64,000 nucleotides of DNA. Origin: Candidatus Bathyarchaeota archaeon (lineage in GTDB: Archaea; Thermoproteota; Bathyarchaeia; Bathyarchaeales; Bathycorpusculaceae). The translations under genes and the position numbers were made by a program. The stretch is taken from assembly GCA_963720565.1 (NCBI GenBank), contig CAVRFW010000005.1, positions 359,027 through 423,026 of the forward strand, written 5' to 3'. Each line of letters starts with the position of its first letter. Positions within the stretch are counted from its first letter, which is position 1. A model generated the notes under the pieces. The model saw nothing but the letters and a program-made list of their open reading frames with translations. It did no database searches and had not been told where the DNA came from. This document shows, piece after piece, positions 5,438-7,548 of this stretch.

Positions 5438-5783
5438 ATGAACCAAGTTTGTTTGAACGAGAAGAACACAGAAACGCATAATCGCAATTTCGAGAAATTG
5501 CTGACAAAAGCGGTGGACAAAGCTTTTTCTTCACTATTCCATTCACAAAAGCAGAATCTCTACTCTCACCTGAGTAGCTGCTACAGCATCAGCAAACAGG
5601 ATATTCCGTATGCTGTTGACGATTTTGTTAATGCTCTACAAGAGATCTTTGGTTCAGGGGCAAAACTTATCGAAATCGAAATGATGAAAAGCCTTCACGC
5701 ACTGGTTAAGAATTTCACATTCGCACCCAATCAAGAGTGACCTGTCATTTACTGAATATGTTAGGGCGATACGCGGCTTATGA
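5438..5783 (+). CDS. Hypothetical protein (DUF3227/NitrOD5-like); apparent +1 indel near 5738
   Basis: AVDKAFSSL..LYSHL..IP..F..ALQEIFGSGAKLIEIEMMKSLH; removing one base continues the frame as DLSFTEYVRAIRGL*. Confidence 0.6.
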
Positions 5784-5870: not shown

Positions 5871-6650
5871 CTAACCTTTTGTGAGCACTATTTCAATTGT
5901 TGAAACCATTCTTGCTCTGGTTTCGCCTTCTCTTGGCGGCATCTCCTCTGTTCCTATGACGATTTTGCCTATTTTTAGGTCTTTTAGAAAGCGGTTTCTG
6001 GTTATTTCAGCCGCATCAACAGCTGTAGTTATAGCATGTCCTCTGGCCTTCAAGATTATCTCCTCAACCTTGCTGCCAGAAAATCCTGTTATTATTGCCA
6101 TTACATAATCCATTGGCATTTTGTTTCCCACGAAAACGATTTTTCCCGGTGCTCGAATTGAAGGCGAAACTTTCTTTTCAATAGTCGCAGGCTTCTTCTC
6201 TTGAGTCAAGTCTTTTGCTTCAGTGGCAACCGCGGTAGTTGGCAGCTGTGCTTTAGTCTCTTGCTGAGTTGGCTCTTGAGCAATTGTTAGATCTTCGATT
6301 TCTCCATTACAGCTGTTCCTGAATGCTTCAATTCCGTTCATGCAGCCCTCTTTAGTCTCGTAGCCCTCACTTTGAGCGATTATTTCTCCGTTTGAAGCAT
6401 TCAGATGAAACCTGAACTTGCCATTTTCATCGCAGAACACTTGATATTTGGGGTTGCTAATTCTCTTCTGTTCTGTGGTCATATCTTCAATTTCTGAATT
6501 GCAGTTTTTCTGAACGCTTCTCACACCTTTGATACAACTTGCATGTTGTTCATAAGCTTCGCTTGCAGCCACAATTCTGTTGTTTTCAGCATTAAGACGA
6601 AACCTGAACTTCCCTGCAGCGTCTTTGTAGACTTCAAATCTTCCTGGCAT
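5871..6650 (-). CDS. Tandem YegP/DUF1508 repeats fused to a C-terminal Alba domain
   Basis: Two repeats (FEVYKDAAGKFRFRLNAENNRIVAASEAY; YQVFCDENGKFRFHLNASNGEIIAQSEGY), T/A/E/K linker, Alba core IILKARGHAITTAVDAAEITRNRF...VSTIEIVL. Confidence 0.88.
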   Translation of the reverse strand: MPGRFEVYKDAAGKFRFRLNAENNRIVAASEAYEQHASCIKGVRSVQKNCNSEIEDMTTEQKRISNPKYQVFCDENGKFRFHLNASNGEIIAQSEGYETKEGCMNGIEAFRNSCNGEIEDLTIAQEPTQQETKAQLPTTAVATEAKDLTQEKKPATIEKKVSPSIRAPGKIVFVGNKMPMDYVMAIITGFSGSKVEEIILKARGHAITTAVDAAEITRNRFLKDLKIGKIVIGTEEMPPREGETRARMVSTIEIVLTKG

Positions 6651-6780
6651 GAAACTCACGAGACCATGATGTTGTGTTTCTAGTAGAAAAAGCTTTGCGA
6701 GTGCACGCTAAAAACGCAAAAAGGAAACGCCAGATCTTAAAGGCTTTAAGCAGAACGAAGTACAATAAGGTAAATCAAAG

Positions 6781-7548
6781 ATGCAGAAGATTTTCAAGTC
6801 TCAAACTAGAAATCTTATCAAAGATTGGGCAAAAATCATAATGCGAGTTAGACGACTTGACAGAGCAACTATAGCTTCTATTTACCTTGATGGAGTTGGC
6901 ATAGAGATTGGTGCATTACATAATCCCTTAAGAGTGCCCCTTTCCGCTAAAGTGCGATACGTTGACCGTCACTCCGTATCAGAACTGCGCAAGCAATACC
7001 CAGAAATGCAGTCTCTAAAGTTGGCAAACGTAGATATCATTGACGACGGTGAGACACTAAAAACTGTCGAGGATTCAACGCAGGATTTTGTTATAGCAAA
7101 TCACTTCTTGGAGCATTGCGAAAATCCAATTAACGCTGTCATCAACTTCTTGAGGGTTCTCCGCGATGGAGGAATACTCTATCTCAGCGTTCCAGATAAG
7201 CAATTCACTTTTGATAAGAACCGTCAAGTTTCTTCTTTTGAACATCTTATTCATGACTACCAAAAAGGACCGACTTCATCAAGGAAAGACCATTTTCGAG
7301 ACTGGGTCATTAACGTTGAACAGAAAAGAAATGAAATAGAGATTCAGACTCGGATAGATGAATTGATTTCTAATAACTACAGTATTCACTATCACGTTTG
7401 GGCTCAGAATGACATCTTAAATTTTTTTGTTCTGTTAAATGAGCGCTTTAACCTGCCTTTAGAGATTCAGCTCTTCTACAAGAACGGAGAAGAAGTTATA
7501 TTCATTATTAGGAAGCAATACCAGAATTTATGTCAGAGCTGCTATTAG
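6781..7548 (+). CDS. Class I SAM-dependent methyltransferase (glycan-associated type)
   Basis: GIEIGAL, YVD, DFVIANHFLEH, RVLRDGG..YLSVPDK. Confidence 0.85.
   Translation: MQKIFKSQTRNLIKDWAKIIMRVRRLDRATIASIYLDGVGIEIGALHNPLRVPLSAKVRYVDRHSVSELRKQYPEMQSLKLANVDIIDDGETLKTVEDSTQDFVIANHFLEHCENPINAVINFLRVLRDGGILYLSVPDKQFTFDKNRQVSSFEHLIHDYQKGPTSSRKDHFRDWVINVEQKRNEIEIQTRIDELISNNYSIHYHVWAQNDILNFFVLLNERFNLPLEIQLFYKNGEEVIFIIRKQYQNLCQSCY

Follow-up and report, generated by a model that had tools for sequence, protein, structure and literature searches.

Archaeal Albas of the Alba/Sac10b family (Sso10b/Alba1, Sis10b; PF01918, TIGR00285) have been studied as bare 10-kDa dimers, tuned by the mixing of paralogues and by lysine modification. 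For Sulfolobus Alba2, a minor paralogue, heterodimerisation is reported as a means by which it could modulate the main Alba (PMC2841500, PMC3535426), and Methanothermobacter Mth10b is reported to have three of the six basic residues of the concave face (PMC3325275). The second family relevant here, YegP/UPF0339/HVO_2922 (DUF1508, PF07411), is known from fusions that include the DUF1508-Ubl proteins of Bub operons, Menshen NsnA and TrpRS PRK12284. Here we describe a gene from a 64,000-nucleotide stretch of a Candidatus Bathyarchaeota archaeon genome (the window) whose 259-residue product, P0001, joins the two families: a pair of DUF1508 repeats is followed by a linker and an Alba domain.

The fused Alba domain shares with Alba/Sac10b the fold, the dimer interface, the F60 contact, K17, Y22, R42 and R59. 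It differs from that family in its 168-residue N-terminal appendage and in the neutral equivalents of K16, R44 and K48, and the gene is the fourth Alba copy of its genome, under a different promoter. Alba2 and Mth10b are the nearest likenesses, both, unlike the fusion, without an extra domain. The F60 equivalent that Alba2 is reported to have lost is kept here (F221, in 87 of 89 fused proteins; PMC2841500, PMC3535426), and the fused domain is basic whereas Mth10b is acidic, the missing trio being 16/44/48 instead of 16/44/83. Relative to the known YegP fusions, the partner is Alba and four cysteines are conserved. Our literature search found no description of an Alba paired with DUF1508/YegP, although survey tables and subscription papers could hold one, and databases already list fused proteins under plain Alba names. 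The fusion is apparently an undescribed variant of two known families.

The fusion is a real gene under purifying selection

An initial annotation of the window, made from the sequence alone, had read this gene as one uninterrupted frame with two DUF1508 repeats, a linker and a complete Alba domain, and this reading stands. The frame contains zero internal stops, and Pfam places DUF1508 twice (E = 9.4e-32, 109 bits, cut-off 22) and Alba at the C-terminus (PF01918, residues 171-233, E = 1.4e-12, 47.6 bits, cut-off 25). The NCBIfam models TIGR00285 (92.7 bits, cut-off 88.25) and AlbA NF003088 (95, cut-off 90) agree, the HVO_2922 equivalog NF041908 falls below its 90-bit threshold (89.4 bits, over two stretches), and the Alba part has the b1-a1-b2-a2-b3-b4 fold. 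The linker, put at about 45 residues and called low-complexity by the annotation, has 46; it is rich in E/K/A/S/P/T, yet not repetitive. Its predicted local distance difference test score (pLDDT) is below 50 at residues 124-167, and among the 89 homologues it spans 21-76 residues (median 33) with a mean pairwise identity of 22%. The start is more likely the ATG at 6650 than the GTG at 6659, given the Shine-Dalgarno-like GTGA at 6656..6659. Internal initiation yielding free Alba was ruled out, since only 6 of 89 proteins have a methionine no more than 10 residues from where the Alba part starts.

The joining of the DUF1508 pair to Alba is confirmed as real and not an assembly join. Contigs from two independent runs cross the linker into the Alba part without gaps (X1 record 8, 6080-7200; X4 record 26, 6063-6560), and the fusion is a single frame in 17 of 18 near-full-length metagenome loci, L055 being interrupted. 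A protein search returned 369 matches, of which 120 were listed; our alignment comprises P0001 and 88 of the first 90 listed, P0088 and P0090 having been left out as N-terminally short. All 89 rows show the same architecture, at identities to P0001 down to about 50%. The named relatives with the fusion are Bathyarchaeia, archaea found in sediments and wetlands, with one of 14 full-length records titled otherwise. Among the matches listed, at least four of 401 Bathyarchaeia genomes carry the fusion (G000, G394, G232, G038), a lower bound given 1217 weaker matches beyond those listed, and all four belong to the window's own family (104 genomes including G000). When each species was represented by a single genome, 14 full-length loci were found, and all but L171 and L173 parse as intact by motif (12 loci); the two genome sets overlap and their counts are not additive. 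The fusion is a patchy accessory gene. Measured against P0001 in 14 relatives, the ratio of non-synonymous to synonymous substitution rates (dN/dS) ranges over 0.05-0.17 in the module, where 13 comparisons gave a value, and over 0-0.19 in Alba; in the much freer linker it is about 0.2-0.7 where measurable in close relatives. Module and Alba domain are both under purifying selection.

Table 1. Position of the fused gene, its domains and upstream motifs in the window, and loci of a second Alba fusion family
Feature	Position	Strand	Basis or remark
Fused gene, 259 residues (P0001): 2xDUF1508 - linker - Alba	5871..6650	(-)	ORF, profile matches, predicted structure
DUF1508/YegP repeat 1, residues 4-58, with C39 and C50	6477..6641	(-)	26/55 residues identical to repeat 2
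DUF1508/YegP repeat 2, residues 68-122, with C103 and C114	6285..6449	(-)	
Linker, residues 123-168; disorder predicted, length and sequence variable	6147..6284	(-)	pLDDT, homologue alignment
Alba domain, residues 169-259, "PMDY" paralogue clade	5874..6146	(-)	Profiles, alignment, tree
A-run + T-run upstream motif, conserved	6687..6696	(-)	Present in 23/23 fused loci
GTGA, Shine-Dalgarno-like motif	6656..6659	(-)	Present in 22/23 fused loci
Alba-HHH_5 locus	L043:3112-3795	(-)	
Alba-HHH_5 locus	L047:19-525	(+)	
Alba-HHH_5 proteins P0122-P0125, P0128-P0130, P0132-P0135, P0144, P0148			

The fused Alba keeps its assembly residues and is probably a weak binder

Residue roles were taken from published work and mapped through alignments to the solved Albas 1nfh and 3toe. 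Equivalents of the dimer-interface positions reported for Mth10b (PMC3325275), namely I207, V211, D212 and E215, occur in 89 of 89 fused proteins, and further interface positions are nearly as constant (of 89: I230 88, I232 85, T234 87, S250 88, I252 85). Among residues with reported filament or dimer-dimer roles (PMC2841500, PMC3535426, PMC7498313), M180 is found, like F221, in 87 of 89; the equivalents of I39 and N53 vary (H/Q/K205, N/R219). Judged by these positions, the dimer and filament residues of the fused Alba appear intact.

The nucleic-acid face is reduced. The KARG, RNRF and GNKM motifs are present as initially described, and the six basic positions of the concave face (16, 17, 44, 48, 59 and 83) read N, K, H, T, R and R in P0001, three of six, with N176, H205 and T209 as the neutral equivalents of K16, R44 and K48; the mapping of R83 depends on a gapped alignment of the hairpin. 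Three such residues are present in 51 of the 88 parsed fused proteins, four in 36 and two in one, as against five in 18 and four in 4 of 22 canonical Albas. The set of six typical of strong-binding Sac10b proteins was not found in any of the 88, the maximum being four, and positions 16 and 44 are both basic in 0 of 89 fused proteins versus 18 of 22 canonical ones. Since the K16N/R44I change is reported to lower the affinity of Sis10b for double-stranded RNA by about 80- to 110-fold (PMC7498313), and no binding is reported for Mth10b with its three of six residues (PMC3325275), the fused Alba is probably an assembly-competent, weak nucleic-acid binder.

The genome holds four Alba loci: a canonical GKKP type, two stand-alone GNKPP paralogues and the fusion. 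The canonical gene lies near what we take, from translations read by eye, to be TFB and L7Ae genes. The initial annotation had proposed an Alba variant that could co-assemble with canonical Alba and display an interaction or sensor module on chromatin. Because the interfaces are intact and the genome supplies a canonical Alba and two stand-alone paralogues, co-assembly and display by this conserved variant appear plausible. "Chromatin" is an assumption, given that Sis10b is reported as an RNA chaperone (PMC7498313) and that the same genome has two histone loci.

The fused Alba domain falls in a paralogue clade with the motif GNK-x-PMDY, whose other members are mostly stand-alone 95-residue genes at 80-88% identity. 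GNKM, which had seemed special to the fusion, is a mark of the whole clade: where Sulfolobus has K16, 76 of 88 parsed fused proteins have asparagine, as do 32 of 43 stand-alone members, 1nfh, 3toe and both GNKPP paralogues of the genome. Fused and stand-alone Albas are interleaved on a quick, poorly resolved tree (148 rows, 90 columns), with nine label changes, at least two of them forced by starred branches. In G394 the fused and the stand-alone copy share 97% DNA identity over exactly the Alba domain, stopping at the domain border; a fused Alba is nearest to the stand-alone copy of its own genome in only one of seven genomes. The Alba domain has thus been exchanged at least occasionally. General gene conversion between fused and stand-alone forms was rejected, as it held in only one genome of seven. 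One locus, L166, contains a fused and a stand-alone PMDY-type Alba within 8.7 kb.

The DUF1508 pair is a mobile module with invariant basic residues

The tandem DUF1508 unit is predicted to form a single pseudo-dimer of two PF07411 repeats (pLDDT 91.9). Six basic residues (K14, R16, R18, K68, R80 and K100) are shared by 40 of 40 modules irrespective of partner; of these, K14, R16 and R18 alternate along strand 2, where they probably line one exposed basic face, as read from strand alternation and not from coordinates. The full set of four cysteines (39, 50, 103 and 114) is found in 63 of 89 fused proteins and in 27 of 29 proteins with other partners; losses are single and unpaired, with V, S, A, G or Y as replacements, and H36 is kept in 85 of 89. 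An ESM Atlas search returned bacterial YegP clusters only (0.90-0.91) and gave no evidence of transfer. No PC4, Whirly or MRP chain appeared in the top 50 structure-search rows for the module alone, which does not exclude such a likeness. An sPC4/Whirly-like nature and a putative sensor role have been described for the tandem DUF1508 of Menshen NsnA (PMC12065111); among 443 cases, 57 are reported in which yegP comes after capK/capS, which respond to DNA damage (PMC13373217), and HVO_2922 is reported to be induced by perchlorate (PMC12175516).

DUF1508 proteins had been described in the annotation as normally stand-alone, which does not hold: many fusion partners occur in this lineage and in print (PMC11601603, PMC12065111), among them ubiquitin-like fusions reported to be monomeric in solution (PMC11601603). 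In this lineage the module is a mobile N-terminal unit on P/E/K-rich linkers, promiscuous in its partners. Sorted by C-terminal partner, 26 module loci comprise 19 with a beta-sandwich, two with Alba, two with MscL (Pfam MscL E = 4.6e-14 for L025), two with others and one unparsed. Further partners include DUF7139 (13), fasciclin, HMA, ribosomal L21 and others, among 92 of 150 listed distant representatives, picked as longer.

The commonest partner (L013-L037, 19 of 26 loci; P0094-P0121) is an uncharacterised beta-sandwich of about 100 residues with conserved tryptophans and weak transthyretin-like and carboxypeptidase-regulatory matches. Fusions to an MscL-like channel are found at L025:1495-2349, L030:1495-2349 and L035:322-1158 and in P0168 and P0182. 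The 2xDUF1508 gene at G000:C2:72078-72899 contains PEV(K/E) repeated in tandem about seven times. What appears to be a frame break separates it from a small membrane hairpin (71842-72156, L007), which is fused to the module in the relatives P0179 and P0181. A similar hairpin gene is divergent from an adjoining single-repeat DUF1508 gene at G000:C8:93027-93567 (L005).

The fused gene has a DUF1508-type promoter and no conserved neighbourhood

An A-run/T-run motif lies 30-56 nucleotides upstream of the ATG in 23 of 23 fused loci and in 0 of 23 in a control segment, and GTG(A/G) directly precedes the ATG in 22 of 23; shuffle means were 1.2 and 0.7, with both patterns derived from the same loci. 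We take the former to be an archaeal promoter resembling the B recognition element and TATA box. Of 22 module genes with a partner other than Alba, 15 have it, as against 3 of 64 stand-alone Alba genes of the clade, upstream of which another sequence is conserved. The fusion has thus put an Alba under a promoter of the DUF1508 gene family, because the motif is common in module genes and rare in stand-alone Albas. A sigma-70 scan, unsuited to archaea, gave chance-level matches only. One RNA run compared with the gene did not cover it, which has no bearing on whether it is expressed.

We found no gene neighbourhood of the fusion conserved beyond near-identical strains and no apparent defence operon in the flanks examined. 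An Ssb-like adjacency, which looked strong at 11 stand-alone metagenome loci, many near-identical, faded at species level. The stand-alone PMDY-type Alba is often part of a small cassette that also includes an Ssb-like OB-fold gene (PF21473) and a 60-residue cysteine-rich gene without Pfam match (L036:667-2305, L078, L081, L085, L092, L183, L219, L220), and G000 has four full-length copies of the Ssb-like family. Some 80 nucleotides upstream of the stand-alone PMDY-type Alba start, beyond the TATA-like box, L174-L238 show a long, strongly conserved sequence, possibly a regulator site or structured leader.

A working model and its alternatives

We tentatively favour a passenger Alba: a weakly binding protein that joins Alba assemblies and displays a YegP module gripping single-stranded nucleic acid under stress. 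The gene would be expressed together with other DUF1508 genes, probably under stress. Its Alba domain may dimerise with itself and with the three other Albas of the genome, entering dimers and filaments through protein contacts while adding little grip of its own; alone, it would bind nucleic acid more weakly than canonical Alba. The linker, predicted to be flexible, would present the tethered YegP pair on the nucleic acid, where the exposed Lys/Arg sheet face of the pseudo-dimer may bind a polyanion, probably single-stranded DNA or RNA. Alba would then be one of several address labels, for nucleic acid or membrane, that the lineage has put on the same module. A bolder version, which we consider doubtful, holds that this reader-carrying variant dopes filaments with a sensor that detects nucleic acid when single-stranded or damaged, and that MscL and hairpins address the same sensor to the membrane. 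The design would parallel macroH2A, a variant packaging protein in which a linker likewise leads to a globular domain that binds a ligand, without homology between the two.

Several observations weigh against the passenger model. The reduced nucleic-acid face is also seen in stand-alone clade members that lack the module, so it is not an adaptation to the fusion. The fused Alba, which is not acidic as Mth10b is, could regain binding through additional arginines in the hairpin (R240, R247) and its net charge of +3 to +11. The module has a slightly negative net charge (-3; median -3), and Foldseek matched it to Pur-alpha only at E 0.04-0.09 and a root-mean-square deviation of 9.5-11. Non-nucleic-acid partners are commonest: the unparsed L035 also ends MscL-like, bringing MscL to 3 of 26, membrane hairpins are the C-terminal partner in other relatives, and the partner range is just as compatible with a ligand that is a protein or a small molecule. 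An Ssb-like neighbour is found at 8 of 65 stand-alone versus 0 of 14 fused loci at species level, too few to count. The fusion is patchily spread, and excerpts of the cited papers show no ligand for any DUF1508 protein.

Alternatively, the module may be a general adaptor for a protein or small molecule, which Alba places on nucleic acid and MscL or the hairpin at the membrane. This would better fit the MscL and membrane partners; we nevertheless think it rather unlikely, given that a polyanion is suggested by the invariant basic residues, which alternate along the strand, and by published links to sensing and DNA damage, and that the fusion has no conserved neighbour encoding a partner protein.

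It is also unlikely, in our estimate, that recombination simply set a spare Alba behind a DUF1508 gene and its promoter, each domain being kept for its own job, so that the link would matter only for co-expression or the bulky appendage would break Alba filaments like Sulfolobus Alba2. The interleaved tree, the identity in one genome that ends at the domain border, the unconstrained linker, the module-type promoter and the patchy distribution all agree with such a capture. However, the fusion persists to about 50% identity, the module is in frame in 0 of 52 stand-alone Alba rows, and clustering of neighbourhoods gave no conserved module-then-Alba operon. The same-genome stand-alone gene is the nearest copy in one of seven genomes only, and the supporting tree has 90 poorly resolving columns.

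A thiol redox or metal switch through which the module controls Alba in an anaerobe would account for the frequent cysteines and H36, but we hold it to be very improbable: the unpaired losses and small or hydrophobic substitutes are as expected at buried positions, and there is no CxxC. An assembly or read-through artefact joining two genes, to which the interrupted L055 (one of 18) and P0093, ending within the Alba part, might point, is refuted by the 89 proteins from several sources, the gap-free bridging contigs in two runs and purifying selection.

Implications and further observations

An assembly-competent, predicted weak-binding Alba with an extra domain would be a third tuning mode beside paralogue mixing and lysine modification. 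The YegP/DUF1508 family is tied to stress and anti-phage loci, and the small soluble fusion offers a direct assay for its ligand; if the sensor-doping version were true, the fusion would reveal the function of this widespread uncharacterised family. The significance is bounded by the facts that both parts are known families, that the module readily acquires unrelated partners and that the fusion is rare in the class.

The lineage appears to have added appendages to Alba twice, as an N-terminal YegP pair and as a C-terminal helix-hairpin-helix. In the latter, an Alba paralogue of Bathyarchaeia carries a C-terminal HHH_5/DUF4332 domain of a DNA-binding type (13 of 120 listed proteins; confirmed for L043), which fits the idea of Alba paralogues gaining extra nucleic-acid-binding arms. 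Within the window, a 100-residue ORF without Pfam match (5438-5740, (+)) is convergent with the fused gene and is kept beside it in five close relatives.
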